From the IMG/VR virus record IMGVR_UViG_3300025435_001056, positions 112,633 through 176,632 of that record: DNA of 64,000 nt. One strand, 5' to 3'. The DNA comes from a virus. Shown one piece after another: positions 40,909 to 58,114 of the stretch. The first letter of the stretch is position 1. The number at the start of each line of letters is the position of its first letter. A program made the translations under genes and the position numbers. A model generated the notes under the pieces. It did not search any database. It was not told the DNA's origin and saw only the letters and a program-made list of their open reading frames with translations.

Positions 40909-40935
40909 AAGCCGCTATCTCAGCGGCTTTTGTTT
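40909..40935 (+). terminator. Rho-independent terminator
   Basis: AAGCCGCT-ATCTC-AGCGGCTT followed by TTGTTT. Confidence 0.75.
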
Positions 40936-40952
40936 GCCCGGTAAATACATCT

Positions 40953-43900
40953 ATGAACATTCAAGAGCTGGATTCCTACAACCTCGCAGATGCTGTCAAG
41001 TTTAATGATCATCTAAATCCTCGTTTGTGGACTGCCGACGAGCACCTACGCCCCGAAGTGCGTGAGCAACTGCTACGCATAGCTGAAGATTTTCGCGAAA
41101 GCCTGGGCATATCAGATCTAGATCTACGGGACATAACCATCAGCGGAAGCAATGCGGCCTATACCTACACACCCAATTCAGACATTGATCTACACCTGGT
41201 GGTCGATGTGCCCGACGATAAAGTTTATCGTGAACTGTTCAATGCCAAAAAGTTTCAGTACAATGAACAGCATGACATCACTATTGGCGGTGCCGATGTG
41301 GAACTGTATGTGCAAGACGACAAAGAACCACACATCAGTCAAGGGGTATATTCGGTACTCAACAACAAGTGGTTGTCAGTGCCACGCCGTGTAAAGAGTG
41401 TGGTGGATGATACCAGCACCAGAAATAAATTTGAAACAGTGGGTCATCAGATTGAACGAGCCATCCGGTCGGGCAACATAAAAAGAATGTCCCGCCTGAT
41501 TGACAAGATCAAGAAAATGCGTCAAACTGGCCTGGAAGCACACGGAGAATTTGGTCCTGAAAACCTGGTATTCAAAATGCTACGCACACAGGGCAAGATC
41601 AAACAACTGTATGATGCTCGTACAGCGGCCAAGGATCGTGAGCTGAGTCTTAAGGAAAAAGCTCCGGTTAAGTTGCCAAAACTGACCTGGGGATTCAAGA
41701 CACCTAGAGTCATGGAAACAGCACCGGCTACAGAACTTGAGCAACCAAAACTGTCTGAAGAAGATATCTTGCGAGACTTTATACACTTCTGTGTCAAAGA
41801 ATTAAAAATTGATCGTTTGCCTACCATCAAGTTGCGTAAAGATCCACAGTGGCCTGTGGTGAACAAGACCTTTGGCCGTTACACCAATGATCGACATCTA
41901 CTGGAAGTGGCCTGGGGTGGTCGCCACATCATGGATGTGCTACGCACAGTGGCACATGAACTCACACACAAACATCAGCACGAGCGCGATGGTGCCCGTA
42001 TGGGAGCCACAGCCGGCGAAACCGGCAGTCCTTGGGAAAATGAAGCCAATGCTAGAGCCGGCATACTCATGCGTGACTATGCTAGACTGCACCCTGACTA
42101 TTTTGCCATAGGGCAAGCACATGACTTGACCGAAGCCACCGGATACATACCCACAGCGGCCGAAGCTGATGATCCACGCTTTAAGATGGCCTTGACTCGG
42201 GATGTGCGTCCGGGTGCTATAGGTCGTGCGGCCAATGCTTTCTTGTTGGACACAGATGCACAGGGTCATCCGCAGGAACTGAGACCCGATGGACTGGTAC
42301 ACCGTATGATGGCCGAATACCATCAGTTCAAAAAGAAAAATCGTCTGAGTGAAACAGTAGAGCTGGACGAAGTCAAAATGAGTCCCAGCAGTTTGATGAA
42401 GTGGGCCGGTAGTCCTGAAGCTCAGGGTATCCGTGCCGGCTTTGAAGCCGAGTTGATATTCCGTGACACAGCCAGTGAAGATTCAGATTACGATCAAGAA
42501 CCCGATTATGATCAGGACGAGCGTTGCCGTAGCATAGATCAAGTGGTGGACTTTTTCCAAACGGATGATTATGGTTATGGTATCAGTGATCGCCAGGCTG
42601 AACGCTTGCGTGAGGGCCTAGACGAACAATACTACGAGTGGCACGATGAGCGAATGTACGCCGCTTGGAAAGACGAGCAGGACGAGCTGATTAAAGAAGC
42701 CTGGTTAGAAGACAAGCCCATGACGGAACGCATACATGCGGCCTTAGTTGATGGGTTGGAATTGACCGATGAAGAAGCCGATGCGGTTGAAGCCTTGCAT
42801 GCCCAGCGTGAAAAGGGTGAAATCAAAGGTTCAGACATGTCAGAAGAACAGTTGGACATGGTTGCAAAGTATAGCGAAGCTCGTAGCATTGCCGAAGATG
42901 TGTTAGAAGAAGATGTGGAACAAACCATAGCCAAGCAAGATGGTTTCTATGACAGTGTGTTGGACAGCTTCCGTGATAACTTTTACATAGATGACGACCG
43001 CGGATTTTTTGACGATGTAGGACTACGCTGGATGAGCGATGTGTCAAACGAATATGATTTGGGCTGGCCCTACATGTCCGGTGGTGGCAACGGCGGATCG
43101 AGAGATCCTGAAGAAATTGGCGACAGTTTGAGCAAGGCCGTTGGCATGCAGGTCAAAGTAAGTAGCGGGTATCATCAGGCCACTCGTAAGCCAGACCTGT
43201 GGATCCTAGAACCTGACTCGAGTCTGGAACCCGACGATCGTGAAGACTATGGACTCGAAATAGTAAGTCCACCCCTGCCCTTGTTGACTACACTAGAAAA
43301 ACTACAACAAGTGGTTGACTGGGCCAACAGCGGTACAGGTGATGCCTATACCAACAGTTCAACTGGCCTACACATGGGCGTAAGCGTGCCTCACAAGGGC
43401 GGTGATGTAGACTATGTTAAACTGATCCTGTTCATGGGTGACGAACATGTGTTGCAACAGTTTGGTCGTGAAAGCAGTGTGTACTGCAAGAGTGCCCTGG
43501 CCAAGTTCCGAGAGAATATCAAGGGTGGCCGTGCGGATCCCATGGGCGTGATCAAATACATGCAATCGGGCTTGCTAGAACTGGCACACAAGGACATACA
43601 AAAAGGTGTAGGCACCGGCAAGTATACAAGTGCGCACATACAGGATGGTTATATAGAATTCAGATCACCCGGTGGTGATTGGTTGTCCGAAGCTAGAGCC
43701 CTGTCAGAAGATGCCAACAGCGCCAACATATTACAAAATACCATGTTGCGTTTTGCTCGTGCCATGCAGATTGCCTCTGACCCTAGTGCCGAACGCCAGG
43801 AGTATGCCAAAAAGCTGTACAAGCTAGTTGCTCCCGAAGGTGATGATCCTAGCCTGGCTCTGTTTGCTCGATACTCCGCAGGCGATATCGACAAAGAACA

Positions 43901-45308
43901 ACTAAAGAAACAGTGGGCTGAAAAGACCTTGGGCACTGAAAAGAAAATTAATCAGCGTTGGAAACTGTATCAAAACGTCAACGGACGTTGGGAACCGGTT
44001 CCGGCAGCTGAGTGGAACGGCTACACTGAAGATCAGGTAAAAAATGCTGTGTGGAGCCGTTATGGTCGTGAAGCTCTTGACACTGGTGAATACCAATTGG
44101 TCAACATGGGCGAACAAGACTGGGAAGTGTATGATGTCAAGACCGGCAAGACCTTGGAAATAGTCAAGGGCAAGAGCAAGGGCGAAGTGGCCGATGCGGT
44201 GTATGACAAGTATGTGGATCAGGGTATTGGCTTTCAGGTGCGTCCGTGGGAAGATCCTGCCAAGATGTCACCCCGAGCAAAACTGGCTAAACGAATAGTT
44301 AAACCCGCGGACAAAAAAGACTGGGACGTTGTTTACAAACCAACTGGTCGTGTAATTGATAGTATACTACGTGTTGACAAAGATGAAGCCAAAAGATTAT
44401 TGGGACACGTGGCCGCGTTACACGACTTTGAAAATGCCGACGATTTAGAAATTCGTCCGCAAGATGTAAAACGGGCCGCTGACAATCGCCAAGACAGCAA
44501 AAGATTAGGGGCTACCTTGGGCGTCAATAATGTGGAACCCGATGTGGCACAAAACTTTGATCAACCTCAGGATGCTACCAACAGGGTAGGTTCTTGGAGC
44601 ATATACGATGTTACCCTAGGACGTGAGCTCAGCAGAATGGACAATGTTCCTTGGTCTCAGGCTGATGCTCGTGCTAACGAAATTGAACGCGGCACTGGAC
44701 ACAACATATCAGTGCGTGGTTTGTCAGAAACGATGGTAGAAAGCCTACCTGCCAAAAATCTCAATCAGTTATACAAGATCAAACAGCAGTTGGCCAATCC
44801 GGCCATGACCACGGCAGAGCCTGAGCCAACGGCCAAACCAGCCGTTGCCAAACCAGCCCAACCCAGACTACATGCCGCTCTAACAGATCTACAGCGCCAG
44901 CGTGAAAAGATACAACGCATCCTGGATCTCAAACAGGAGATAGAAACACTTACAGCCCGTGCTGGTCGCACACGCTACGGAATCACTCCAGGCCTGGCCG
45001 CTGATATCGAAGACATATACCCCAATCCTGCCACCGAAAAGGACATGGATGCGGCCATATCCGGTTATCAAACCCAGTTGAAAAAACTGCAGGATTATAT
45101 TGCTCGTCAACGTAGAGTATTTCCCAAGGAAGATGTTGCGGAAAACTTTGCCGATGGTCGAGGTCCAGGTCGCCCAGGAGACAGCGTTCGTCATGGAATA
45201 CCCAAAGGTGCTACCATGGCTGAATTAGAAAAGGCCAGTCATGCCAAGGGTAGAAAAGGGCAATTGGCCCGTTGGCAGTTAAATATGCGTAGAGGAAAAA
45301 AGAAATGA
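40953..45308 (+). CDS. Large multidomain polyprotein: Pol-beta-type nucleotidyltransferase, HExxH metallopeptidase, amidoligase-like domain, short repeats
   Basis: ISGSNA..SDIDLH..VELY; VAHELTH..WENEANA; GFEAE..EIVSPP..STGLHMGVS..IEFRSPG; W.VYD..TG repeats; TAAATA 5 nt upstream. Confidence 0.8.
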   Translation: MNIQELDSYNLADAVKFNDHLNPRLWTADEHLRPEVREQLLRIAEDFRESLGISDLDLRDITISGSNAAYTYTPNSDIDLHLVVDVPDDKVYRELFNAKKFQYNEQHDITIGGADVELYVQDDKEPHISQGVYSVLNNKWLSVPRRVKSVVDDTSTRNKFETVGHQIERAIRSGNIKRMSRLIDKIKKMRQTGLEAHGEFGPENLVFKMLRTQGKIKQLYDARTAAKDRELSLKEKAPVKLPKLTWGFKTPRVMETAPATELEQPKLSEEDILRDFIHFCVKELKIDRLPTIKLRKDPQWPVVNKTFGRYTNDRHLLEVAWGGRHIMDVLRTVAHELTHKHQHERDGARMGATAGETGSPWENEANARAGILMRDYARLHPDYFAIGQAHDLTEATGYIPTAAEADDPRFKMALTRDVRPGAIGRAANAFLLDTDAQGHPQELRPDGLVHRMMAEYHQFKKKNRLSETVELDEVKMSPSSLMKWAGSPEAQGIRAGFEAELIFRDTASEDSDYDQEPDYDQDERCRSIDQVVDFFQTDDYGYGISDRQAERLREGLDEQYYEWHDERMYAAWKDEQDELIKEAWLEDKPMTERIHAALVDGLELTDEEADAVEALHAQREKGEIKGSDMSEEQLDMVAKYSEARSIAEDVLEEDVEQTIAKQDGFYDSVLDSFRDNFYIDDDRGFFDDVGLRWMSDVSNEYDLGWPYMSGGGNGGSRDPEEIGDSLSKAVGMQVKVSSGYHQATRKPDLWILEPDSSLEPDDREDYGLEIVSPPLPLLTTLEKLQQVVDWANSGTGDAYTNSSTGLHMGVSVPHKGGDVDYVKLILFMGDEHVLQQFGRESSVYCKSALAKFRENIKGGRADPMGVIKYMQSGLLELAHKDIQKGVGTGKYTSAHIQDGYIEFRSPGGDWLSEARALSEDANSANILQNTMLRFARAMQIASDPSAERQEYAKKLYKLVAPEGDDPSLALFARYSAGDIDKEQLKKQWAEKTLGTEKKINQRWKLYQNVNGRWEPVPAAEWNGYTEDQVKNAVWSRYGREALDTGEYQLVNMGEQDWEVYDVKTGKTLEIVKGKSKGEVADAVYDKYVDQGIGFQVRPWEDPAKMSPRAKLAKRIVKPADKKDWDVVYKPTGRVIDSILRVDKDEAKRLLGHVAALHDFENADDLEIRPQDVKRAADNRQDSKRLGATLGVNNVEPDVAQNFDQPQDATNRVGSWSIYDVTLGRELSRMDNVPWSQADARANEIERGTGHNISVRGLSETMVESLPAKNLNQLYKIKQQLANPAMTTAEPEPTAKPAVAKPAQPRLHAALTDLQRQREKIQRILDLKQEIETLTARAGRTRYGITPGLAADIEDIYPNPATEKDMDAAISGYQTQLKKLQDYIARQRRVFPKEDVAENFADGRGPGRPGDSVRHGIPKGATMAELEKASHAKGRKGQLARWQLNMRRGKKK

Positions 45309-46267
45309 AAGCTAACGAATTTGTCACTGAAAAGTGGAGTCAAAAATACAAGAACAGTATCAACTGTAGCCACCCTAAGGGGTTTAGCCAACGTGCTCAT
45401 TGTGCTGGCAAGAAGAAGCACAACGAAAGCCATGAGTTAATGGAAATGACATGCCCAGACTGTGGCATGTGCCAAACACACGGCAACTTAAATGAAATCA
45501 AAAAAGGTCAAAAAGATGCCAACGGTTACACTCGTTGCTGGCCTGGTCGACATGCCGAAGGTACCAAGCGTGGTAAAAACGGCGGACAAGTTCGCAACTG
45601 TGTGCCCAACGAAAGTGTGGCAGAAGGCGAAGGTCGCGTAGATCCTATCCTGATCAAAGCACTCAACCGCATGCCCGACGGTTTGGCAACTCATCGTGAA
45701 GTGCTGGATGCCGCCTATGACGCTTATGCCATGGAACTGGGCAAGATGGCCATGCGAAGCGAGTATGGTGTAACCAACCGTTATATTCCACAACTCTTGA
45801 GCCTTTACAAAGACAAACACGGTTTAACTTTTAACGAAGAACAAGAAGAACTTGCAGAAGAGTTTGATCTGATCGAGTCAATCATTGAAGACTTGGCCGC
45901 AAGCAATGGAGTTGATAGTGAAGTGATCTGGGAAGATTTAGAGAGCTTGGACGATGATGAGCTGTATGTGTTTGCTACCACCAGCACCATTATGGAAACT
46001 GAAGCCTGGCAAAAGGCCAATAATCGAGATAGAACCAACGGCATGAGTCGTAAGGCAGTAAAAGCCTATCGCAGAGAACATCCTGGGTCAAAACTACAAA
46101 CAGCAGTGACTACTAAACCTTCAAAATTGAAAAAAGGTAGCAAGGCCTCCAAGCGTCGTAAGAGCTACTGCTCAAGATCAAAAGGCCAAATGAAAATGCA
46201 CAATATCTCGTGTGCCAAAACTCCAGATAAAGCTATCTGTAAAGCACGTCGTCGCTGGAATTGCTGA
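45305..46267 (+). CDS. Modular basic/Cys-rich protein (putative internal head protein)
   Basis: MKANEFVTE followed by KWSQKYKNSINCSHPKGFSQRAHC, CWPG..NCVP and YCSRSKGQM..ARRRWNC modules. Confidence 0.7.
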   Translation: MKANEFVTEKWSQKYKNSINCSHPKGFSQRAHCAGKKKHNESHELMEMTCPDCGMCQTHGNLNEIKKGQKDANGYTRCWPGRHAEGTKRGKNGGQVRNCVPNESVAEGEGRVDPILIKALNRMPDGLATHREVLDAAYDAYAMELGKMAMRSEYGVTNRYIPQLLSLYKDKHGLTFNEEQEELAEEFDLIESIIEDLAASNGVDSEVIWEDLESLDDDELYVFATTSTIMETEAWQKANNRDRTNGMSRKAVKAYRREHPGSKLQTAVTTKPSKLKKGSKASKRRKSYCSRSKGQMKMHNISCAKTPDKAICKARRRWNC

Positions 46268-46521
46268 TGCGTTTGAGAGAGTTTGCTCCTGGAGCCGGTG
46301 ACGGCCGTAACGAGCCCAACGAAGAAGAAGTGCTTCGCAAGTTGGCCGCACAGTGGTGGCACGGCGATGAAGATCCGCGTGCTGAACGTGCCTTGTCCGC
46401 CCTGGGTTGGACCATAGGACAAAACGAAAGCGATGACGAAGACGGTGTGTTTGTTGTGCGTATTGGCGACATCAACGGCGACAGTTACATATCCTTTCCA
46501 GAAAGCGAATTGGATTTATGA
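46267..46521 (+). CDS. Small protein paralogous to the N-terminal module of the 46518 protein
   Basis: MRLREF..LAAQWW..LSALGWTIGQ; TGATG overlap. Confidence 0.7.
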   Translation: MRLREFAPGAGDGRNEPNEEEVLRKLAAQWWHGDEDPRAERALSALGWTIGQNESDDEDGVFVVRIGDINGDSYISFPESELDL

Positions 46522-48380
46522 GATTAAGAGAGTTTGTAACTAACCCAGATCCGTGGAATGGTGGCGAGGATGATGAAGTACCAGATCATCTGTATCGTTT
46601 GGCCAATCTATGGTGGAACTCTGCTGATCCGCAAGAACAACAAGCCTATGCTCGTGAATTGGCCGCACTTGGCTGGACTATTCAACAGGTAGATTATGAT
46701 TATGTCCAGCTCAAGAATCGCGCAGGTCAAGAGTATACTATCAGTGACAGCGGCTTTGATCCCGATCTAGATGAAGTTGTAAATCCTAACCTGCGACCCG
46801 GCTGGGAACGCCGGGAACACCGCGGTGGATTGGATCTCTTGGCTTCTTACAATGAACCCAACGGTCAGCGGGTGCTCAGCATCTTGGCCTATGATCGCGG
46901 CGGTAGAGAAATAGGCAATGCACACTTTGAAGTCATAAACGATCATTTGGAAAGTTTTGACACCTATGTGCGGCCCGACATGCGCCATCAGGGCATAGCC
47001 ACTGTGATGTATGACTATGCGCAAGAGCTGGGCAATGATCTCAAGCCCAGCGGCTATCAAACTCGTGCTGGCAAGCGGTTCTGGCGAGCCCGTCAGCAAC
47101 CACAACAGGTGGCCGAAATCAGTGACGAACTACGCCGTAGCTATTTAGATCGTGCTGGTCGTCATGTGGATCGTCGTATGGATCACATGGCTCGTGTGCG
47201 TGATAAACTCAATAAAGGTTATGAAATCTACCATGCAGATCGTCCTGCAGGAAGCTCACAGATAGTGGATCGCTTTGAAGCTGATACTCCTGCGGAAGCC
47301 AGACGCTATTATGAACAGTATATTCAGAACTATGAAAGTGATCGAGACTTTGATCTACGCCTACGCCGTGCTACAGGTATCATGGAATTATTTGATCGTC
47401 CTGTTAAACATGAGCCTACTACTAGCCGCACACGCCAGCGTTTTAAGACTGATGTTGATGGACATGAAATTCAAGTACACTTTAATCCCAAAGGTGATCA
47501 ACTTGAAGTCGACTTCTATGTAGATGGTCGTGGCTTTGCTGTACAAAACACAGTTAAAAATCCACGCGAAGTGTTCAGTGCCGCGGTACGCACAATCATG
47601 GATAGATTGCCCGAAGCCATTGCATATTACAAACCCAAAACAGTTTGGTACAAGTCCGTAGGCCTTGATAAATCTCGTGTCAGCCTGTATAAAAAGTTGT
47701 TAGATGTATTTCAACAATCTCTAGGCCCAGACTGGACAGCAAAAACATTTCCAAAAGAGGGCTGGCAATTTTACACTTTGACTCGCAATAAGCTAGATGA
47801 AATAGCCCGCATACCACAGGGTGACTACGGAGACGAAGGAACCTTGGCCGGCGATGTGCCTAGAGTCAAGCGAAAACCCTTGCCCGGCGGAAGCGGATAC
47901 ACTTACGGGGTAAACAAAAAAGATCCTGAATACATGGAAATCATGATATTCGATGAGGATAAACTGGTAGCCGAAATGGATCTGTCTCATACCAGAGATC
48001 CACTCAAAACCTGGCAAGTAGAAAATGTGGCCACCGATCCAGCTTATCGTGGTCAGGGCTTGGGCAAAGCACTCTACGGTATCGCTCTTAGTATTTTAAA
48101 ACTCACAGTAGAAGCCGGCGAAACACAAACTAAACACGGACAGAGAATGTGGATTATGTTAAACTCAATCCCTGGAGTTGAAGTACAAGGCTATGCCATG
48201 GAACCCACAGCGGAATATCGTGCTAGACCCGGGGATGAAGTTGTAGATCAAAACAAAACTTGGACTCGTTATACATTTCCTGTAGAACCCGGACAGCGCA
48301 GCATGCGTAGCACCCGTCGTGGAACAGGCATTTATAGTAGCCACTATGTGAGCATGATAGCTAGGTGGACCGGCGCATGA
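46518..48380 (+). CDS. Multidomain protein with two GNAT acetyltransferase domains
   Basis: VRPDMRHQGIATVMY and TDPAYRGQGLGKALY acetyl-CoA binding motifs. Confidence 0.8.
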   Translation: MRLREFVTNPDPWNGGEDDEVPDHLYRLANLWWNSADPQEQQAYARELAALGWTIQQVDYDYVQLKNRAGQEYTISDSGFDPDLDEVVNPNLRPGWERREHRGGLDLLASYNEPNGQRVLSILAYDRGGREIGNAHFEVINDHLESFDTYVRPDMRHQGIATVMYDYAQELGNDLKPSGYQTRAGKRFWRARQQPQQVAEISDELRRSYLDRAGRHVDRRMDHMARVRDKLNKGYEIYHADRPAGSSQIVDRFEADTPAEARRYYEQYIQNYESDRDFDLRLRRATGIMELFDRPVKHEPTTSRTRQRFKTDVDGHEIQVHFNPKGDQLEVDFYVDGRGFAVQNTVKNPREVFSAAVRTIMDRLPEAIAYYKPKTVWYKSVGLDKSRVSLYKKLLDVFQQSLGPDWTAKTFPKEGWQFYTLTRNKLDEIARIPQGDYGDEGTLAGDVPRVKRKPLPGGSGYTYGVNKKDPEYMEIMIFDEDKLVAEMDLSHTRDPLKTWQVENVATDPAYRGQGLGKALYGIALSILKLTVEAGETQTKHGQRMWIMLNSIPGVEVQGYAMEPTAEYRARPGDEVVDQNKTWTRYTFPVEPGQRSMRSTRRGTGIYSSHYVSMIARWTGA

Positions 48381-48736
48381 AGGCTGAAGAACTAGATACG
48401 GTACCAGCTGAAGATGTCCTAGTGTATGTGCAGAGCATACATCACGATTTTAATCTTCCCGATACAATTTTAACTCATCCGCGCTGGCGCAAGACTCGTG
48501 TGCCTTTGAATCGCCTGCATATTCCAGATCCAGAATCGGGCGAAGATCTAGCGGATCCTTACAATCGTGTACAAATGATCGACATGCATCATGTAGCCGA
48601 AATAACTCGACGCGATATAGAACGACGTCCTATTGTAGTCGATGACAATCGACACATAATTGACGGCAATCATCGTGCTTTAGCCGCTAGACTAGGCGGT
48701 CTTTTTGATATTCCAGCCTATATACCTGTAAAATAA
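48377..48736 (+). CDS. ParB/Srx-like N-terminal domain protein
   Basis: PIVVD..IIDGNHRALAA..IPAY. Confidence 0.75.
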   Translation: MKAEELDTVPAEDVLVYVQSIHHDFNLPDTILTHPRWRKTRVPLNRLHIPDPESGEDLADPYNRVQMIDMHHVAEITRRDIERRPIVVDDNRHIIDGNHRALAARLGGLFDIPAYIPVK

Positions 48737-48754
48737 ATGGCCGCTAAATACAGT

Positions 48755-49048
48755 ATGGCCCGACAATTTATTCGTTTACTATGCGACGTAACCTGCGACT
48801 GGGAAGGACTTAGTCCTATCTATCGGGCCTATGTCAACGACGAATTGTTTGCTGAACGTACCTGGATTTGGACCGATTGTTACCTGGAAGAACTGTTCCA
48901 GATTGAAGCCAAATCTGGAGAATACCGTGTGCGCTATGAACTAGTACCGCCACACCTGGCCAACTTGACTGTGAGCAATTGGCGGGTAGAATACGGACCA
49001 GCTACTGTAGAAAACGGCGTTTTAAGGATACACAATGAGACTGTATGA
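48755..49048 (+). CDS. Hypothetical protein
   Basis: YRAYVNDELFAERTWIW; TAAATA 4 nt before ATG 48755. Confidence 0.7.
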   Translation: MARQFIRLLCDVTCDWEGLSPIYRAYVNDELFAERTWIWTDCYLEELFQIEAKSGEYRVRYELVPPHLANLTVSNWRVEYGPATVENGVLRIHNETV

Positions 49049-49238
49049 AATTGTAAATTTGGATGAAACTGCGTCAGCAGGAGCCACCGGTTCAGGTAGC
49101 GTAGCCACTGTAGCCATGCCCTTGGGCGGCACCATCAGCAGAAATGGCGGCAGTTTCTTTACCGGAACTAAATACATTACCGGCGATGCAACACCAAATA
49201 CGCCGGCTGAATACAAGAAGTACAAACGGAAAAAGTGA
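49035..49238 (+). CDS. Small putative internal head protein
   Basis: MRLYEIVNLDE followed by TASAGATGSGSVA; basic C-terminus. Confidence 0.7.
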   Translation: MRLYEIVNLDETASAGATGSGSVATVAMPLGGTISRNGGSFFTGTKYITGDATPNTPAEYKKYKRKK

Positions 49239-49678
49239 TGCTGGCTGATTTATTAAAAACTCTATTGGGAACACAGGCTGCCTACTATGTCAAGGCCCAC
49301 GGTTTCCATTGGAATGTAGAAACTCTTGATTTTTATCAGTATCATAAGTTTTTCCAAAAGATCTATGAAGATGCCTACAGCGCCATAGATCCCATAGCCG
49401 AATATATCAGAAGCCTAGACGAATATGCTCCAGGCAGCCTAGAGCGTTTTTTAGAACTAAGCATAATTACCGGGCAGACCAAAGTGCCCCGTGCCCGATT
49501 AATGATTGAAGAACTGTTGGCCAACAGTGAAGAAATGGTTGCCCTATTGAACCAGTGTTTTGCTGCTGCCACCAAAGAAAACAAACAAGACATAGCGAAC
49601 TTTATCGCTGAACGTTTGAGCCAGACCAACAAGTTTGCCTGGCAACTACGTTCTACCTTAAAGGAAGCAAGGGCATGA
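49238..49678 (+). CDS. dps: Dps-family ferritin-like protein
   Basis: KAHGFHWNV, YHKFF..IYE, IDPIAEYIR, AWQLRS. Confidence 0.88.
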   Translation: MLADLLKTLLGTQAAYYVKAHGFHWNVETLDFYQYHKFFQKIYEDAYSAIDPIAEYIRSLDEYAPGSLERFLELSIITGQTKVPRARLMIEELLANSEEMVALLNQCFAAATKENKQDIANFIAERLSQTNKFAWQLRSTLKEARA

Positions 49679-49681
49679 TCC

Positions 49682-50338
49682 ATGGCACACGACCATAACG
49701 ATATCTATTCAATAGTTGAACGTCTCCGTGTCTTGGAAGAAGGACTGGACAAGAACCAACGGTCGGTAAACCAACTCAGTGCCACATTCAAACCCAAGAC
49801 TGTGGCTGTGCTGACTGCCAAGACTGATCCTAAAAATCCCATGGCAGGCAAGCTAGTAGGCGGCAGTGAAAGTGTGGAACCCGATGAAGACATGCTGGAA
49901 GATGCTGGCATGTCCTGGGATGGAGTAAGCCCCGACACCAAAGAATTTGCCAGCGAGGACGTGTTGGAAAAGGTCAAAAGATCATTTACTGATTTTGTCA
50001 AGTCGGTAGAAGAAGAAATTAAAGATTCGGATATCAAAGAGAAAAAGTCAGAAGATACGGATCTCAAAGACAAAGATCAAAAGGATCGTGCTCTCATAGC
50101 CAAACAGGTCAAAGAACACGGTACCAACTTACCTGAATCAGATCCAGTAAAAACCATCACCAATGAGTCAGGCACTTGGGCAATACACGAGGCCGCCGGC
50201 AGTTTTGAAATACGACACGGTAATGGCCGACTGCCTACTAGATTTAAAAACATGGATGAAGCCGCCTTGGCTGTGGAAATGTTTAACCTGCGTCGTAAAA
50301 GAAACGATGTCACACAAGATTATATAGATGAAGCTTAA
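49682..50338 (+). CDS. Acidic hypothetical protein (putative head-associated)
   Basis: 218-aa ORF ending DYIDEA. Confidence 0.7.
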   Translation: MAHDHNDIYSIVERLRVLEEGLDKNQRSVNQLSATFKPKTVAVLTAKTDPKNPMAGKLVGGSESVEPDEDMLEDAGMSWDGVSPDTKEFASEDVLEKVKRSFTDFVKSVEEEIKDSDIKEKKSEDTDLKDKDQKDRALIAKQVKEHGTNLPESDPVKTITNESGTWAIHEAAGSFEIRHGNGRLPTRFKNMDEAALAVEMFNLRRKRNDVTQDYIDEA

Positions 50339-50350
50339 GGAAGAAAATAA

Positions 50351-53300
50351 ATGTTAGCATTAGACCTATTCAATACCCGGTTCGAAAAGAATTTACAAGA
50401 AGGCGCCTTAGACGACACCATAACTCGTACACAGGCACACTTGATGGAGCCCTTGAGCAAGCGTGCTGCCGAAATCCGCACCCAGTTGCGCAGTGGCAAA
50501 TTACGACCCATGCAGATTCAACAGTTGGAACGCGAGTATGAAGATCTAGTTGACAAGCGCATGAAGATTCTCAAAGGTGAAATCACTTCACAAGAAGAAT
50601 GCATGGGCTACGGCGGTCTTGGTGAAGATGTTTATGACACTTACACCAATACTTACAGTCCCGAAGCTATTGCATTAGGTAAACGATTTTGCGAACACTA
50701 TAATATCACAGATGATGACGATATTCAATTTGCAGTGGAAATTATTGATAACGAACTCGAAGGGTTTAAACACGCTAATCAACCTGTAGATTTAAAGCGT
50801 ATAAAAAGCAGTGTAGCTGACGCATTCCGCCAGGCGTTCCGTGGTATTAGAACTGATGGGCCAAACTTCCGTAAACACTTTAAAGAAGCAGGTCTTCCTG
50901 ATATTGCAGACAAGCAGGCCAAGATGTCTCAACTCAATCAACCCGGTCGAGCAGGCACAGATACTGTCAAGCCACAACAGCGTGTGAACCCTAACCCCAA
51001 CAAGGGCGTAGTAGGTCATGCTGCAGATTGGTTGCGTGGCAAGGGCGGTCCTGGCAAAGAAGGTCCTACCTACGAAGACCTAGATGAACAAGCCACTCCT
51101 GGATCTACAGCACAAGGTGTTTACAATGAAATGATTCAAGCCTGGACCGACGAAAAAGATCATCTGGTCATACCATTTCCCAACAGCCCCAATGCCACAC
51201 TTACAAGACCTCAGTTATGGAACGCACTTGTGACTCTAGGACAAGTAGCGCCAAATCGTCGAGCAAAATATATAGAATCAAAATTTAATGATTTTGAAAC
51301 ATTCATGCACTGGCTCAACCAGATAAAACGCTACAAGGTTCCGGCCAAGAAAAAGAAAAATGTACAGCAGGCCATGGATTTACAACCACAAGTGGTAGCA
51401 CCGCCATCAGTTACACAGGCCGCTGAACCACAAGTTCCAATGGCCGAAACCCGCGGTCAAAAAAAAAATTCTGAAGACCCAGATCTAACAGGGTCCACAG
51501 CTCGTGATGCTACAGTGCAACGCGAACTTCAAAAGGTCCGTGCTCGTCACCCTTCGGCCCGCACTGATATTGAAGCATTGGTCAAGGATGAAATAGTCAA
51601 TCAAGAACGGGTAAATCAAGAAATTGAGCATTTAGAAACCGTTGACAGTCAACAAGATGCCCAGCTGAAACAGGCACTGACCTTGAATCGCCAGCAAGAA
51701 CAAGAAATTACCAATCTTAATCAGGAGTTGTCAAGACTTGACAGCAGGTTGAATCAGATCATGTCTACCACGGCTGCAAAACCCACAACACAACCAACTA
51801 AATCCGCAACAACTACAAAGGCAACTCCTGCTACCGCAACACCATTGTCGGTAACTCCTGCAACAACTGAACCTATCAAGCCGGCCGAACCAGTAGCAGA
51901 TAAATCTGCGGCTGAAATTGTACGCCTGGAAAAACAGATACAGCAGTTGGAGCTGATGATGACTCTCAAGACTCCAGCACAACAAGATGATCTCCGTGAT
52001 CGTATTGACGCATTGGAAAAAGAGCGCGATGCCAAGGTAGAAAAACAAAAGGCCGCTACAGCCAAGGGCGCCGCCACTAGAAAAGCCAATAAGGACAAGG
52101 CCGCGGCCGCGGCCGCAAGTGAAAAACCATCAAGCGCACCAACTACAGTTGAGCCTGAAAAAACACAAAAACCTTACTATCCTGATACTGCCGGTATAGC
52201 AGGCATGGGAGGATCTACCAAAACTAAACCCAATAAACCCAATAAACCAACCGGCATGGATTTTTTAGATGATCTTCTTAAAGGTCACAAAATTGAAATG
52301 GACCCGGGCGAAACAGCCGAGCTTGATCCGGAAGAATTACGACAAACTGCCGAAGTTGATGAAGGTACCGACAATCCTGCAGATATCGGTTCAGGCAAAC
52401 AGTTAAGACGTACTCCAGAGATTCGCAGACTCAAGCAGGTTCGAGACTACGAACTCATGTTGAAAAAAGAGCTGGCCAATCGCATACAGGATCGTAATGC
52501 CGAGGATGATGAGCAAGATTTTCAAGATGTAACAGAAAGTAACATGAAACGCATGCTCGGTGATCTTGACGACATGACCGATGCCGAATTCCTGCAACTC
52601 TACAAGCGTCCCAAACAGTATTGGCGCAATCAGTTAGCGGTCAAATCTACACCGGCTAGCAATATCAATGACTTAGAATCCGATATTGATACTGCTGTGG
52701 CCAAACCCACATTTGATCGTACAGGTCGCATGGTTCGCACCAAGCCGGCCAATACACAACAGGGCATGCGTCGCATGTTGGGCCGACCTAAAACAACACG
52801 CCTGGCTCCAGCTTTAGAGCCAGTGGAAGTGACCATGCAGGTACCCAACAGAAAAACTGATCAGTATGATCTGTTACCAGCTCGCATATTCAACAGCGAA
52901 GCCGAAGCCCGTGAATTTGCTCGTAGAGTAAACGGTTATATTACCAGCATCAAGCCGGTCATGCACGAAGCTACTGTAGGCGGATCAGGTCTAACTGGGT
53001 TACAAGACCACTATGCTGTGTATAAGAAAGAAAACGGCCGAGTCACCAAAGTTAAGGATACCAACAAGGCTGGCGGACCAATGAACAGTCTGCAAGCTCA
53101 GGCCTATGTCAATACTATGATCAAGAATAATCCTCAACGCTACAATCACGAAACAGTCTGGCATGCTCCGGCCGATATAGATCTGGACGAAGGACAAGTA
53201 GTTCCATTCGCTATACCCGATGATCGTGCCCAAGGTAATTACGAGCAGATGAATTATCGCAAGAATCCAAGTGACCGATATGGTGTTATTGATCACACAT

Positions 53301-54022
53301 TTAACAAATTAATAGTAACTGCTAACAATTTAAAACAGGCCAAGATGGAAGCTATTGAGTGGGCCGACTACGACGACATTAAAACCAGCGTGGTCAATCA
53401 AAAAACTGGAAAAACTGTGTTCGTGGTCAATGGATCGCATGATGCTGAACAGTACATGTATGAGGCTGCCAATCCAGCACAACAGTCTGCCATTGCCATC
53501 AACATGAAGAAGCATCATAAGAAGCCCAAACACGTGGAAGAAGATGCCATCCCTGGCAAGATGGTTACCCAGGGCTTTGTGGTTGAATATGATCCTACAA
53601 CACAGACTGTGGTGATCAGCAAGCGTGGTCAAGAATTGGATCGCTTTGCTTTCAAAGGCAAACCCAACCTGATCGGCTTCCAGAAAATCATAGCCAGGCG
53701 AGTCAAGGCCCTGGAAGATGATCTCTACGGAGCCGATGATGAAGCCGGCGCAGTAAGTCTCAGTCGCGTAAAAGTACCAGGACGTGGCTACGGATTCCAA
53801 GAACTGGGTGAAGAATCCAGTACCAGCAGTGACGAAGCCGAGAGTGCCATCCTAAAACGAATTATGACGGCACATTTGGATCTGCTAAAAGAATTTGGTC
53901 CACAAAAGGTCATGCAGGCTGTAGAAGAAGTGGCTTACAATGTAGGCGACTTGGACGAAATTGGATCCAGCGATGTCAGTGCCTGGGTACACGAAGTCAA
54001 ACAAATCCTCGGTGCTGAATGA
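50351..54022 (+). CDS. Large modular low-complexity/coiled-coil protein (putative internal head polyprotein)
   Basis: 1223 aa; many modules bounded by hydrophobic-x-E; includes EAANPAQQSAIAINMKK module. Confidence 0.75.
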   Translation: MLALDLFNTRFEKNLQEGALDDTITRTQAHLMEPLSKRAAEIRTQLRSGKLRPMQIQQLEREYEDLVDKRMKILKGEITSQEECMGYGGLGEDVYDTYTNTYSPEAIALGKRFCEHYNITDDDDIQFAVEIIDNELEGFKHANQPVDLKRIKSSVADAFRQAFRGIRTDGPNFRKHFKEAGLPDIADKQAKMSQLNQPGRAGTDTVKPQQRVNPNPNKGVVGHAADWLRGKGGPGKEGPTYEDLDEQATPGSTAQGVYNEMIQAWTDEKDHLVIPFPNSPNATLTRPQLWNALVTLGQVAPNRRAKYIESKFNDFETFMHWLNQIKRYKVPAKKKKNVQQAMDLQPQVVAPPSVTQAAEPQVPMAETRGQKKNSEDPDLTGSTARDATVQRELQKVRARHPSARTDIEALVKDEIVNQERVNQEIEHLETVDSQQDAQLKQALTLNRQQEQEITNLNQELSRLDSRLNQIMSTTAAKPTTQPTKSATTTKATPATATPLSVTPATTEPIKPAEPVADKSAAEIVRLEKQIQQLELMMTLKTPAQQDDLRDRIDALEKERDAKVEKQKAATAKGAATRKANKDKAAAAAASEKPSSAPTTVEPEKTQKPYYPDTAGIAGMGGSTKTKPNKPNKPTGMDFLDDLLKGHKIEMDPGETAELDPEELRQTAEVDEGTDNPADIGSGKQLRRTPEIRRLKQVRDYELMLKKELANRIQDRNAEDDEQDFQDVTESNMKRMLGDLDDMTDAEFLQLYKRPKQYWRNQLAVKSTPASNINDLESDIDTAVAKPTFDRTGRMVRTKPANTQQGMRRMLGRPKTTRLAPALEPVEVTMQVPNRKTDQYDLLPARIFNSEAEAREFARRVNGYITSIKPVMHEATVGGSGLTGLQDHYAVYKKENGRVTKVKDTNKAGGPMNSLQAQAYVNTMIKNNPQRYNHETVWHAPADIDLDEGQVVPFAIPDDRAQGNYEQMNYRKNPSDRYGVIDHTFNKLIVTANNLKQAKMEAIEWADYDDIKTSVVNQKTGKTVFVVNGSHDAEQYMYEAANPAQQSAIAINMKKHHKKPKHVEEDAIPGKMVTQGFVVEYDPTTQTVVISKRGQELDRFAFKGKPNLIGFQKIIARRVKALEDDLYGADDEAGAVSLSRVKVPGRGYGFQELGEESSTSSDEAESAILKRIMTAHLDLLKEFGPQKVMQAVEEVAYNVGDLDEIGSSDVSAWVHEVKQILGAE

Positions 54023-54657
54023 AAATATCAGATTTCAAAATAAAAAACTACAACAAACTGGACAGTATCCTGGTGCGTCTGTGTGAGTTGGTCATAGACG
54101 GTCAACGCAAGAATCCTGATCTATACGGCATGGTAGCTGCCGCTGTGCTGGATCCTGATAACCGCTGTGTAGCTGCACTAAACTATCAAACTGATGCTGG
54201 CGATGTACATGGTGAACGTGCCGCAATAGATGCCTATCATGAACGCTTTGGTTCTATACCCGAAGGCAGCATTATACTCACTACCTGTAGTCCTTGCACT
54301 GAGCCTATGCCTGAACGGTATGGCGACAGTTGCAAAGACCTGATCAGCTCAACCGCAGTGCATAAAGTCTATGCTGGCTACAGAGACCCCAGTCAACAAA
54401 CTTTTGGCGGTAACAAGACCTATCATTTGGAAATCACTCGTAACAAGAAGATACAGGAGCTGTGCGGGGCTTTTGCTGCAACTTGGCTCAAGGATGAATT
54501 GAATGAACTCAGTTTCCTAGGAAGCCCTTGTACCAAGGACTGTAGCGGCCATAGAGCCGGTTATGCCTGGAGTCAAAGCAAGGGTGGCCAGGTAGCACAA
54601 AGCCCTTGGAGCCCCAGCTTCAACAAGGGCAGTCAACTACATGTGGATGGCAAATGA
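54019..54657 (+). CDS. Zn-dependent cytidine/dCMP deaminase-fold protein with C-terminal Cys module
   Basis: VAAAVL, VHGERAAI (HxE), TTCSPC (PC motif); tail FLGSPCTKDCSGHRAGYAW. Confidence 0.8.
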   Translation: MKISDFKIKNYNKLDSILVRLCELVIDGQRKNPDLYGMVAAAVLDPDNRCVAALNYQTDAGDVHGERAAIDAYHERFGSIPEGSIILTTCSPCTEPMPERYGDSCKDLISSTAVHKVYAGYRDPSQQTFGGNKTYHLEITRNKKIQELCGAFAATWLKDELNELSFLGSPCTKDCSGHRAGYAWSQSKGGQVAQSPWSPSFNKGSQLHVDGK

Positions 54658-54725
54658 ACGATTACCCAGTATGGCCCGAAGACAACGGCGATGATAGTCC
54701 AAGAAATCCTTACGCACCAGTCTGA
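54654..54725 (+). CDS. Putative 23-aa peptide MNDYPVWPEDNGDDSPRNPYAPV
   Basis: ATGA overlap with the deaminase stop; overlaps the start of the next gene. Confidence 0.4.
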   Translation: MNDYPVWPEDNGDDSPRNPYAPV

Positions 54726-55281
54726 GATCACTGAATCCAGTGGCTACAGCCTGGCTGGTAGTTTTACCAGAGATCTTATTGCCAGCAAGGTCTGGTTGTT
54801 ACAAGAACTAGAAAAGATTCAACGTCATTACACCACCATATATGTATTGGGATCCTGGTATGGTAACATGGCCCTGTTCATGAGTCTACAGCCTGTCATT
54901 ATAGCAGACACTATTATCAATGTGGAAGTCAATCCTGAAATGTTGCAGACCAGTGAACGGTTATTAGATATGGCCGGCGTAGATAACGTGGAGTTCATGC
55001 TGAAAGATGCCAACAAGCTAGACTATCAGCAGTTAGGTGATGCCGGTGTGGTAGTCAATACTAGCCTGACCGAAATGTCAGAACGGGCCTGGTTTGATCA
55101 CCTACCGGACGGCACCTTGGTTGTGATGCAGGCCAGAGATCAAGATCCTGGAGTCGAATATCACAGTATATCAGATATACAACGAAGGTATCCCTTAAGC
55201 CAAATACTATATCACGGCTCCATGCAGTTGCGCGATCCCGAAACCCAATATACTCGTTATATGGTTATCGGTATCAAATAG
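54691..55281 (+). CDS. SAM-dependent methyltransferase-like protein
   Basis: YVLGSWYG, INVEVN, KDAN, VVNTS Rossmann-like motifs. Confidence 0.65.
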   Translation: MIVQEILTHQSEITESSGYSLAGSFTRDLIASKVWLLQELEKIQRHYTTIYVLGSWYGNMALFMSLQPVIIADTIINVEVNPEMLQTSERLLDMAGVDNVEFMLKDANKLDYQQLGDAGVVVNTSLTEMSERAWFDHLPDGTLVVMQARDQDPGVEYHSISDIQRRYPLSQILYHGSMQLRDPETQYTRYMVIGIK

Positions 55282-55390: not shown

Positions 55391-56101
55391 ATGAAACCAT
55401 ATGTAAAAGAATTCCTTGATACTTACAACGATAAGAATATCTTTGAGTATGCGCCATTGCCCGATGGCGATGTGTGGGCTCAGGCCAATTGGATACTATT
55501 TGAATCCAAAATGCCATGGTTAGAATTGACAGGTATTGATGCACCTTATGCAGAAATGTTGGCCGAAGCACAGGCTCTTAAAGACCTATTTGTGTATCAC
55601 CGTGATGGTGAAGAAGGACACAGTGGGTGGCGTAGTTTGTCTGTACATGGTATCAGTGCTGACAAGACCAATGTGCCTGAAACTTACGGTTTAGATCCTA
55701 ACCAGGTCACTTATCAGTGGACTGAAATACAAGATCGTTGCCCAGTTACAGTTGAATTTTTCAAACAAGTATTTCCTTACAGTCGATATCAAAGATTAAG
55801 ATACATGTTGCTGGAACCCGGCGGATACATTGCACCACACAGTGACAATGTTAAAAATATTCCTGGGGCCGCTGTAAATATTTCATTAAACAATCCTGAG
55901 AATTGTCGGCTGACCAGCACGTTTGGAACCATGCCATTTAGAGATTCAGGTAGTATATTTTTGTTTAACAATCATTATCAACATGCCGTGCATAATGCCA
56001 GCAATACCGATAGATTTCATATGATTGTACATGGAGAATGGCGCAGTCCAGATTGGCAACAACTAGTAGTCAACAGTTATAAAAAGGCCCTAAATGGTTG
56101 A
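55391..56101 (+). CDS. Aspartyl/asparaginyl beta-hydroxylase-like Fe(II)/2OG oxygenase
   Basis: RLRYMLLEPGGYIAPHSD, HAVHNASNTDRFHMIVH. Confidence 0.8.
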   Translation: MKPYVKEFLDTYNDKNIFEYAPLPDGDVWAQANWILFESKMPWLELTGIDAPYAEMLAEAQALKDLFVYHRDGEEGHSGWRSLSVHGISADKTNVPETYGLDPNQVTYQWTEIQDRCPVTVEFFKQVFPYSRYQRLRYMLLEPGGYIAPHSDNVKNIPGAAVNISLNNPENCRLTSTFGTMPFRDSGSIFLFNNHYQHAVHNASNTDRFHMIVHGEWRSPDWQQLVVNSYKKALNG

Positions 56102-56759
56102 AACTTTTGATAATTTAATTTCTTCTGAACAGTTGTCTTGGTTCCGCAATGACTTTGAACGCATGATTGACGTTGATCCGGTCATGCGTCCATACGATCC
56201 TGCAGATGCCAAACGCATATATGGTGTAGACGATTGCTCGGTGCTGGATCAACGGCACTTGGTACAGGCTGGTACTGAGGCCTATAACATTATGATTGAT
56301 ATTCTTGCACCAGTAATACCTGCTGGCACATTTTTTTACATGGCCTATCAGCGACAATTTTTACCACATCAATTGCATGTGGACGAAGTGTACGAGCATA
56401 CCAATTTAGACTATGCCAAAAGTGCGGTAATTCCCTTGTACGAAAACACCAATAACATTTTTAAAACCATTATTTGGAACAAGGTATTTTTGACCAATAG
56501 CGATCTACACAGTTTTTTCAAAGAGTACATTGCAGATTCTTCAAAATTCCCAACAGTCAGTGATGTCAGTGCCACACAAGATGTTGACCATTGCTGGGGA
56601 TTGCCCAGCATAGTGGATGTCATGTCATTAGATGGCGTATATGATTATCAATTGGGATCTATCGGTATGTTCGATCGTACTCATGTACATTGTTCATCCA
56701 ACTGGCGAAAATATCGTCAGATTGATTACAAAGATATCATTATACTTCACATTGGCTGA
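56094..56759 (+). CDS. Putative Fe(II)/2OG oxygenase-like protein
   Basis: PHQLHVD (HxD), FDRTHVHCSS, K..I. Confidence 0.6.
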   Translation: MVETFDNLISSEQLSWFRNDFERMIDVDPVMRPYDPADAKRIYGVDDCSVLDQRHLVQAGTEAYNIMIDILAPVIPAGTFFYMAYQRQFLPHQLHVDEVYEHTNLDYAKSAVIPLYENTNNIFKTIIWNKVFLTNSDLHSFFKEYIADSSKFPTVSDVSATQDVDHCWGLPSIVDVMSLDGVYDYQLGSIGMFDRTHVHCSSNWRKYRQIDYKDIIILHIG

Positions 56760-58114
56760 AAAAAGTCTAGGCCGCCGCAGTTTTCTAAAAACATAGGCAC
56801 AGGTGTTTTAGATCTTAACGTATTTTTAAAATCGTTGCTGTGATTCTGACACCAGGCGTTGGTACGATAGAACATCAAGTAATCCATCTTAAATGCATTG
56901 CTGGTCCACACATAGACACCCTGTTTGCTGTCAACAACCAGTTGTAAAATTTGATCTGCAGCCGTGTTATCGAGCAAATTTAGATTCACGTAATGGTGAT
57001 CCATATTTCTGTATCGTTGCCACAGGGCAGTAAATTCTTCTCGGGTCATGCCGGCATTGCTCAGGAACCAGGTCAAATTATTGTCAATTGAATTATATGT
57101 AAAATAGATAGGAGCATAGTCAGGATGTTGATTTCTAAAATCAGCAAATACCGATTCAAAACTGTCAAAATCTCCTGACCAGTTGTCAATCAAATGCCGT
57201 TGCCAATCCAAAGCAGCCTGACTGATATCAAACAGATAAATTTTAGAGTCGGCGGCAAAGTTTGTCTGTCCAGCAATGCAGGCTGGTTTCAAACCACCAC
57301 ACACACCTACAAAACAATCCATCGGCACAGTTCGGGCATTTTCATTGGCTTGCAAGTGCTCGGTATTCAGCACATAATAACCAACCTGCAGATTTTTAGT
57401 CAAATAGTCCAGTGCTTGTTTAAACCACCACAACGGACCATTGGTATCTTCAGGTACATGAGTGGGATCATTTATTATTTGTACCAGACCATCGTGACAG
57501 AATTCTGGATAACAGTGATTTTTCTTGTTTCTCACTTCGTTAGGAATATTAGTTATACTGTGACCGTTGCGTACAAATCCAGCTATGACTTCTAGTCCAA
57601 AGTAACCAAGATCACTAGTATATGTGGTCAAGTCTTCTGAGGACGGTCTCACCCACCAAGGAGTATAGTCATCATGCACATTGTCTGGGCATCGTTCTGT
57701 AGTCCTGGTAACAATTTCAACCGGACCAGGAGTCCACTCAAACGGCGGACTACCAATGGCTGTATAGGCCGCCAGATCAATAGCAAACCATTGCGGATGC
57801 AGGTGATAGTAGCCGCCGCGATCTAATATATGGCAGGCCAAGGGACTGTTTTCATTCTTGGCATGTTCAATAGTTTTGAACAACAAGGTTTGATCTTGTA
57901 AAAAGTTACCGGCGGTGACCACAACTGCCCAGGCAAAATTGCCGGCTAGTTGTTGCAAAGTTGCGGTAATGGTTTTGGTATGAAATATGTTCAGACGATA
58001 CTTTCCATTTAATTTAAAATCAGTAAAGTCAATTAAATTTTGTGCAATATCATCACATTCAGGTTTTAAATCATTGTACAACACCACGGCAATTTCTGGG
58101 TAATCGTTATTCAT
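56747..58114 (-). CDS. Hypothetical protein
   Basis: 455-aa ORF; minus-strand TAAATA at 58155-58160. Confidence 0.7.
   Translation of the reverse strand: MNNDYPEIAVVLYNDLKPECDDIAQNLIDFTDFKLNGKYRLNIFHTKTITATLQQLAGNFAWAVVVTAGNFLQDQTLLFKTIEHAKNENSPLACHILDRGGYYHLHPQWFAIDLAAYTAIGSPPFEWTPGPVEIVTRTTERCPDNVHDDYTPWWVRPSSEDLTTYTSDLGYFGLEVIAGFVRNGHSITNIPNEVRNKKNHCYPEFCHDGLVQIINDPTHVPEDTNGPLWWFKQALDYLTKNLQVGYYVLNTEHLQANENARTVPMDCFVGVCGGLKPACIAGQTNFAADSKIYLFDISQAALDWQRHLIDNWSGDFDSFESVFADFRNQHPDYAPIYFTYNSIDNNLTWFLSNAGMTREEFTALWQRYRNMDHHYVNLNLLDNTAADQILQLVVDSKQGVYVWTSNAFKMDYLMFYRTNAWCQNHSNDFKNTLRSKTPVPMFLENCGGLDFFQPM

Follow-up and report, generated by a model that had tools for sequence, protein, structure and literature searches.

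Why would a phage join a nucleotidyltransferase (NTase), a metallopeptidase, and an amidoligase in one chain of 1451 amino acids (aa), and why do most of the genes that follow begin with much the same few residues? The question arises from a stretch of viral DNA of 64,000 nucleotides (the window), positions 112,633 to 176,632 of the IMG/VR record IMGVR_UViG_3300025435_001056, which forms the last 64 kb of a 176.6-kb virus contig (G000) that CheckV rates as ~51% complete. At issue is a block of 12 plus-strand genes, overlapping or close-packed, at positions 40953 to 55281. An original prediction, made from the letters of the window, held that these genes encode strings of cargo modules that are packaged, cut apart at hydrophobic-x-Glu junctions during head maturation, and injected. 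The answer toward which we lean, with a confidence a little better than even, is that the block serves a jumbo T4-like phage as its locus for internal (cargo) proteins, enlarged into protease-jointed polyproteins. Its proteins are, on the genomic evidence, probably capsid-delivered cargo; their targeting, cleavage, ejection, and role in host takeover or counter-defense are what we infer from the pattern described below.

That pattern begins at the N termini, where the claim of a similar short leader on most genes holds up well. A loose form, M-x-x-x-[ED]-hydrophobic, opens 10/12 genes of the block as against 7/200 elsewhere on the contig (p 3e-11), and the strict form M-[RK]-x-x-E-[FIL] opens 5/12 as against 2/200 (Fisher p 4.6e-6). 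The comparison set was 15 IMG/VR loci with a relative of the 1451-aa protein (33-64% identity). There, the strict leader heads 44/172 genes on the variable side of the locus and 0/125 in the conserved upstream flank. The local consensus is M-(R/K)-(A/L/I)-x-E-F-(V/I)-(T/x)-E; individual leaders are 9-17 aa long, end in (L/I/V)-x-Glu, and precede otherwise unrelated proteins. What does such a leader resemble? The T4 internal proteins IPII and IPIII begin MKTYQEFIAE in the T4 record. In this capsid-targeting sequence (CTS), residues 4 and 7 serve targeting and residues 8 and 10 serve processing, the protease gp21 cutting after L/I-X-E (PMC9026906), so that the T4 comparison of the original prediction was apt. 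The consensus retains the Phe of position 7, the Ile/Val of position 8, and the final Glu of position 10. In T4, an Asp in place of this Glu prevents processing and leaves targeting intact. Codons vary among the leader copies, so it is the peptide that is conserved and not a DNA repeat. A recombination repeat at the DNA level, considered as the origin of the common leader, is ruled out by the same codon differences.

Further leader genes lie elsewhere on the contig, at 1676 (MKKFQQYLAE), 4485 and 4856 (both MRAREF(V/I)TE), and 31540. The leader-bearing genes at 1676 and 36015 match PHROGs labelled virion structural protein. Outside the window, contig positions 1676-5254 hold a second small cluster of leader genes, which, at the start of the contig, adjoins a gp4-like gene for head closure.

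What happens inside the chains? A given module can stand behind the final Glu of a leader in one phage and behind an internal hydrophobic-x-Glu (hxE) in another, and modules starting NFADG, IKKGQKD, (S/T)A(S/T)GYIP, ACWKGY, LNYPDE, NLKxWFK, and CTKDCSGH are all found in both positions. The basic tail NFADG, for example, stands alone behind MLIKELTE in one relative (L013), and it ends twelve different chains after VAE, LEE, VDE, LQE, or LNE. When 11 orthologous polyproteins are aligned, the large insertions (87-724 aa) are all flanked on both sides by hxE; the window has GLSE, 138 aa, and then VAE before NFADG, where another locus (L004) has GLQE directly before NFADG. The decisive evidence for the joints is comparative, a breakpoint test. 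For this, 200 locus proteins were compared all against all by BLAST, and a breakpoint needed at least 3 supporting high-scoring segment pairs. (L/I/V/M/F)-x-E falls within 4 residues of 55/94 starts, where 14.1 were expected, and of 45/110 ends, where 17.1 were, a fourfold enrichment, and the controls hxD, hxK, and hxQ have no excess. Exchange of modules exactly at hydrophobic-x-Glu joints is thus strongly supported by these alignments. The modularity and exchangeability foreseen in the original prediction are seen across the 15 loci, and the comparison of module order that it proposed finds the same module behind a leader or an internal joint, depending on the phage.

The joints themselves are strict. 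Nine module families supply 44 unique internal joints; of these, 43/44 have Glu at P1 and 39/44 a hydrophobic residue at P3, against backgrounds of 7% and 24%, and P1 is never Asp in the NFADG, VKMSPS, and IKKGQKD families. Where a joint is old, hxE is retained although the leader half upstream of it is no longer recognizable. Together with the flat controls, this sole survival of hxE argues for selection on a cleavage determinant rather than for inert scars of fusion.

Does this group of phages have a protease that could cut there? The phage, an uncultured lake phage of a jumbo freshwater T4-like lineage, is by its family-B DNA polymerase nearest the Atu_ph07/Phosso/Rak2-like group (Phosso 51%, Atu_ph07 47%, 121Q/CBB/Rak2-like phages 43%). 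A 228-kb contig of a relative (G001), whose polyprotein is 63% identical, encodes a gp21-type Peptidase_S77 (PF03420) at 1.4e-25, which sits with portal, scaffold, and major capsid genes in a T4-like head module. Several hxE sites lie in the N-terminal region of that capsid protein; one of them, LRE before NASSG, is at the position matching the T4 gp23 maturation site. A gp21-type S77 protease is also found in 3/5 other large leader-bearing contigs, and large contigs with true leader matches carry S77.

A link to virions comes from the cultured phage Atu_ph07, in which the amidoligase module has a stand-alone homologue (32% identity, 1e-16). The gene is two places away from that for the portal, and its product opens with 13 leader residues, the last three being LTE, ahead of the conserved LKM. 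This homologue is gp196, as assigned by gene order, gene lengths, and mass, and in the Atu_ph07 virion proteome 14 peptides cover 30% of gp196 (PMC6102473 Table S5). Other large virion proteins of this phage peak in low-mass bands, namely gp108 (98 kDa) in band 13 and gp44 (86 kDa) in band 10, while gp53 (87 kDa) is most abundant in band 9 (PMC6102473 Table S5). As a separate observation, these three bands would fit extensive proteolytic processing of Atu_ph07 head proteins.

To follow the chains one by one, the features of the block are listed here, after two gene starts were reset (46267, MRLREF, and 48377, MKAEEL).

40909-40929, bidirectional: hairpin resembling a terminator, at the close of the conserved genes upstream
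40944-40949, plus strand: TAAATA, resembling a late promoter, with 3 nt between it and the polyprotein ATG; no Shine-Dalgarno
40953-45308, plus strand: 1451-aa polyprotein with NTase, zincin, small module, amidoligase, repeats, helical insert, and basic tail
41955-42050, plus strand: zincin motif region, residues 335-365 of the 1451-aa protein
45305-46267, plus strand: 320-aa protein with leader MKANEFVTE, Cys-rich module, LNE64 joint, IKKGQKD module, and C-terminal DUF6321 basic tail
46267-46521, plus strand: 84-aa protein that has leader MRLREF and is paralogous to the opening module of the 620-aa protein
46518-48380, plus strand: 620-aa protein with leader MRLREFVTN and joints LDE86, VAE200, IME290, and LDE428
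48377-48736, plus strand: 119-aa protein starting MKAEEL, weakly ParB/Srx-like (DGNHR)
48737-49048, plus strand: 103-aa conserved protein without a leader, found in nearly all related loci
49035-49238, plus strand: 67-aa conserved small protein with leader MRLYEIVNLDE, Ser/Gly/Ala stretch, and basic Lys/Arg tail
49235-49678, plus strand: Dps/ferritin-like DNA-binding protein (Pfam 1.4e-19), kept in nearly all related loci
49682-50338, plus strand: 218-aa acidic conserved protein without a strict leader
50351-54022, plus strand: 1223-aa mosaic protein with leader MLALDLF...LQE17 and supported joint FQE1151
54019-54657, plus strand: deaminase protein with deaminase domain at 33-120 (9.5e-8), LNE163 joint, and Cys-rich C-terminal module CTKDCSGH
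54691-55281, plus strand: 196-aa protein, the final gene of the block, with leader MIVQEIL...ITE15 and weak methyltransferase similarity

The 1451-aa protein opens with an NTase of the Pol-beta type at residues about 20-236 (Pfam 2.8e-4, PHROG 4e-41, Foldseek matches to ANT/AAD(9) and CD-NTase). A zincin follows at 269-385, which Foldseek places with the minigluzincins 4jix and 4jiu (probability 0.98-0.99); Pfam is weak here, and a sequence search of the segment against the PDB returned only noise. Its HExxH motif (HELTH) and the downstream ExxA (ENEANA) are invariant in 11/11 orthologues, and the embedded zincin is for this reason probably active; its target could be the chain itself, other cargo, or a host protein. 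Next come a small module starting ATGYIP (395-466) and an amidoligase/glutamine-synthetase-like part from 474 to about 985, with an Amidoligase_2 match at 1.1e-7; Foldseek matches of residues 474-1451 are glutamine-synthetase-like and weak. Residues about 1000-1256 (window 43950-44730) form four tandem small beta-beta-alpha domains of ~45-60 aa each, with the pattern W-x-(V/I)-Y-D-x-x-T-G, which could be assigned to no family. The 1223-aa protein (50351-54022) seems to contain units of a similar kind. A helical insert (1264-1397) and the basic tail starting NFADG (1398-1451) complete the chain. The comparative junctions place the joint Glu at residues 235, 255, 394, 467, 473, 1259, 1263, and 1397, with codons, for example, at 42132-42134, 42369-42371, and 45141-45143. 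Pfam gave mostly no match for individual modules.

The other chains are built alike. The C-terminal end of the 84-aa protein corresponds to the LDE86 joint of the 620-aa protein, and the latter has GNAT domains at about 100-190 and 469-527, the first a borderline match. The 1223-aa protein has no match in Pfam or PHROG; its orthologues span 422-1427 aa with a highly variable set of modules. The CTKDCSGH module stands alone behind a leader in other loci or forms the C-terminal end of other proteins. In the enzyme list of the original prediction, the NTase, metallopeptidase, amidoligase, deaminase, and two GNATs are recovered, while the ParB-like and methyltransferase entries are weak; the Dps/ferritin gene (49235) and the DUF6321 tail had been overlooked, and the zincin had not been considered as a processing enzyme. 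Two side observations belong here. (i) The Ser/Gly/Ala stretch of the 67-aa protein (window 49035-49238) resembles the major capsid protein of the relative (L017, 7712-8908, minus strand) just past its predicted maturation site, LRE before NASSGSTVSG. (ii) The Dps/ferritin-like protein could protect DNA, either packed or made together with the cargo.

When would the block be expressed? The TAAATA that follows the terminator-like hairpin fits a T4-late-like promoter, in agreement with the original view of the block as late. This element lies within 45 nt upstream of 34/212 genes, fiber genes included, where about 4 would be expected. Often it is only 3-7 nt from the ATG of genes without a Shine-Dalgarno (e.g., window 38309, 39142, and 26649; contig 8775, 37303, and 52805), which suggests leaderless or near-leaderless late transcripts. 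No exact copy of the T4 late promoter TATAAATA occurs in the window, the shorter TAAATA being the enriched element.

Put together, the parts would work as follows. The genes of the block would be transcribed from the late-type promoter, and the N-terminal address M-(R/K)-x-x-E-F-(I/V)-x-E, T4-CTS-like in form, would dock their products onto the scaffolding core of the prohead. A gp21-type serine prohead protease, cutting after (L/I)-x-Glu, would strip the address and would also cut the exposed hydrophobic-x-Glu joints between modules. One chain would thereby become a separate NTase, zincin, and amidoligase, with the GNATs, the deaminase, and small basic DNA-binding tails released likewise, and the freed modules would remain in the head and exit with the DNA. 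With a joint of its own, each module could be inserted, deleted, or transferred without disturbing its neighbors, which would explain the hypervariability of the locus.

Several results weigh against this reading. AlphaFold models built from shallow alignments reached a pLDDT of 64.5 for residues 1-473 of the 1451-aa protein and 71.4 for residues 474-1451. The six joints that the original prediction had named in this protein (255, 394, 467, 473, 1263, and 1397) all lie in linkers with pLDDT<50; the naming was selective, however, since the protein has 31 [LIVMF]xE sites and 22/31 are in ordered regions. Sites in linkers (9/31, against 19.6% of residues) are not significantly enriched (p 0.14), nor are those of residues 1-473 taken alone (p 0.28), and neither result is used as support. 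Predicted structure by itself would not have revealed the effect of the joints: the proposed enrichment at domain boundaries appears at homology breakpoints and is not significant in AlphaFold linkers. The density of [LIVMF]xE is likewise near background (2.0% in the block, 1.4% in the rest of the contig). The p-values of the breakpoint test are inflated because orthologous joints were counted repeatedly, and the well-supported breakpoints of the window alone, though 6/6 adjoin hxE, are a small subset. The polyprotein start MNIQEL, listed as a leader in the original prediction, does have the loose form common to the block, but it is atypical, with neither a basic residue nor Phe, and lies partly within the NTase domain, where it aligns with domain-internal sequence of Maribacter phage Molly. 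The block also sits among replication and chaperone genes, away from head genes, and profile searches of the window's own contig with PF03420 and PF07068 found no match and no head gene, an absence that is uninformative because the contig is about half a genome. The virion data are for the Atu_ph07 homologue; Atu_ph07 virions were purified with polyethylene glycol, so co-purifying proteins are possible, and gp196 is mostly in a high-mass band, giving no sign of internal cutting in its stand-alone form.

Could the leader address the cargo without any internal cutting? The internal hxE would then be remnants of fused leaders, or preferred recombination joints, and the chains would work intact. 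Fossil leaders can be recognized inside chains (one internal stretch aligns with MRLREFAPSP, and RLSETVELDE compares with MRLSEFVELKE), the close-packed, overlapping genes would fuse easily, gp196 runs mainly at high mass, and a virion protein of phage N4 that contains a metallopeptidase (MPTase) is packaged unprocessed (PMC5512222). We nevertheless consider this unlikely, though the least unlikely of the alternatives, given what the joints preserve: hxE outlives the rest of the decayed leader, P1 is almost invariably Glu, insertions bring their own hxE at both ends, and the hxD, hxQ, and hxK controls stay flat. A different cutter is also conceivable, namely the embedded zincin, which would process the chains itself in the manner of polyvalent proteins, perhaps ahead of packaging or without it, or once inside the host. 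Its invariant motifs and its minigluzincin fold match speak for this, as does the MPTase autoprocessing proposed for phage polyvalent proteins such as P1 DdrB (Iyer et al., PMC5512222). Yet the 320-, 620-, and 1223-aa chains and the deaminase have like joints and no peptidase, the joint motif is the one after which gp21 cuts and which marks the capsid protein's predicted maturation site, and the leader, which ends in that motif, occurs on many single-domain proteins in S77-carrying phages; we rate self-processing as improbable.

Perhaps, then, the leader is no capsid address at all, and serves translation start on leaderless or Shine-Dalgarno-less late mRNAs or recognition by the phage's neighboring chaperones ClpA/DnaJ, the proteins being ordinary intracellular enzymes. 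Many leader genes do lack a Shine-Dalgarno, all relatives keep ClpA-like and DnaJ genes in synteny with the locus, and the leader is also found on ligase-like and NMNAT-like enzymes usually considered cytoplasmic. Against this stand the conservation of the peptide despite synonymous codon differences, the interchangeability of the leader end with internal joints, its resemblance to the experimentally defined T4 CTS, and the virion evidence for homologues (Atu_ph07 gp196 and the PHROG matches), and we think this explanation slightly more doubtful still than self-processing. What about chance and selective reading, given a short degenerate motif in long Glu-rich proteins? The near-background density and the nonsignificant structural test are what chance would give, but the leader and breakpoint statistics with their controls, the independent module families, and the at least 120 contigs with an exact leader before real open reading frames (ORFs) already contradict it, and it is very improbable.

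How does the locus sit in its genome and in those of relatives? Upstream are DnaJ, a ClpA/B-type ATPase, an NMNAT-like gene, and a 307-aa gene, and downstream are an 87-aa gene and DNA polymerase. In 15/15 related loci, a hypervariable gene set, nearly all of it leader-bearing, lies between the same constant flanks, ClpA/DnaJ/NMNAT-like on one side and DNA polymerase on the other. When the block was compared by megablast with 50,697 phage records, none matched. Between the block and the polymerase region, positions 55391-58114 hold a gene of 2OG-oxygenase type (Asp/Arg hydroxylase family), another of 221 aa, and, on the minus strand, one of 455 aa; these are not at that place in related loci (e.g., L010 and L007) and look like a lineage-specific insertion.

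The leader reaches well beyond this locus. At least 120 IMG/VR contigs contain the exact form M-K-x-x-E-F-(V/I)-T-E, and among the leader matches listed, 122/127 open ORFs of at least 60 aa with very diverse products. It behaves as an optional add-on, since Stenotrophomonas phage DLP_6 and numerous uncultured phages have it on their DUF6267 ligase-like protein, whereas the family member of cyanophage P-HM2 lacks it. In DLP_6, the leader of AAY80_066 ends in LAE, ahead of SKDVV. Leaders precede DUF6267 ligase-like proteins (about 405 aa) and NMNAT-like proteins of 728-801 aa in many uncultured phages (loci L042, L047-L049, L063, L081, L110, and others), and these enzymes may be capsid cargo as well. 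For a common 112-aa leader protein from IMG/VR, no cultured relative was found. Is there, then, a general plug-and-play grammar in environmental T4-like phages, in which modules bounded by hydrophobic-x-Glu travel behind a CTS-type address in one chain, are released by the head protease, and reach the host with the DNA, from a single hypervariable locus, as a changing cocktail for counter-defense and takeover in the first minute? We offer this tentatively, as a possibility to which we give somewhat less than an even chance. The cocktail may include CD-NTase/ANT-like NTase, zincin, amidoligase, acetyltransferases, deaminase, Dps, ligase-like and NMNAT-like enzymes, and basic tails. In the literature searched, no paper was found on prohead-protease-jointed cargo polyproteins or on such a leader in metagenomic T4-like phages.

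Should the joints be genuine cleavage sites, the consequences would be 3-fold. (i) Capsid-delivered proteins would become predictable from sequence across abundant aquatic and soil phages, in which almost none has an assigned function today. (ii) The fast variation of the injected arsenal in such phages would be explained. (iii) An address plus cleavable joints would be a natural design rule for loading several foreign proteins into T4-type capsids.

With which known systems should the block be compared? The closest in form are the T4 internal proteins IPI, IPII, and IPIII and Alt, whose CTS is removed by gp21. There too, a tag of ~10 residues ending in an L/I-x-Glu cut site is all that unrelated proteins have in common, the locus is hypervariable, and small basic products are among those encoded; the S77 protease and the head module exist in the phage group of the window. 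The tag of the block is one residue shorter, and whereas the T4 internal proteins are single small proteins, the block encodes multi-enzyme chains of up to 1451 aa (2135 aa in relatives) with repeated internal joints. The T4 CTS is experimentally defined; for the block, targeting and cleavage are predicted from its genes. A gp21-related protease also cuts many internal head proteins after Glu, some of them multiply, in phiKZ, 201phi2-1, and SPN3US, and the propeptides of these phages are thought to act like a CTS (PMC5694885). Their motif, however, is S/A/G-x-E or A-x-E and their propeptides exceed 100 aa, where the block has L/I/V/M/F at P3 in 39/44 joints and leaders of 9-17 aa. The multiple cuts of that unrelated lineage fall mainly inside propeptides, and their presumed role is the removal of these rather than the release of enzyme modules from one another.

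Polyvalent proteins (PMC5512222) offer the other parallel. They carry two to fifteen unrelated effector-type domains per polypeptide, as chains of the block do, with an embedded zincin-like peptidase and rapid domain shuffling, and delivery with DNA has been proposed for them. In the block, the fold and the invariant HExxH/ExxA place such a peptidase in the 1451-aa chain, and the other chains are without one. Polyvalent proteins are proposed to be processed by embedded peptidases, in a portal/MuF context; the block has a prohead-protease motif, CTS-like leaders, and mostly peptidase-free chains, with no portal, terminase, or MuF gene beside it, a portal adjoining the Atu_ph07 homologue only. 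The word amidoligase has 0 occurrences in the text of Iyer, Burroughs, Anand, de Souza, and Aravind 2017 (PMC5512222). Overall, we would class the block with the T4 CTS/internal-protein system, as a variant that overlaps the polyvalent-protein concept.

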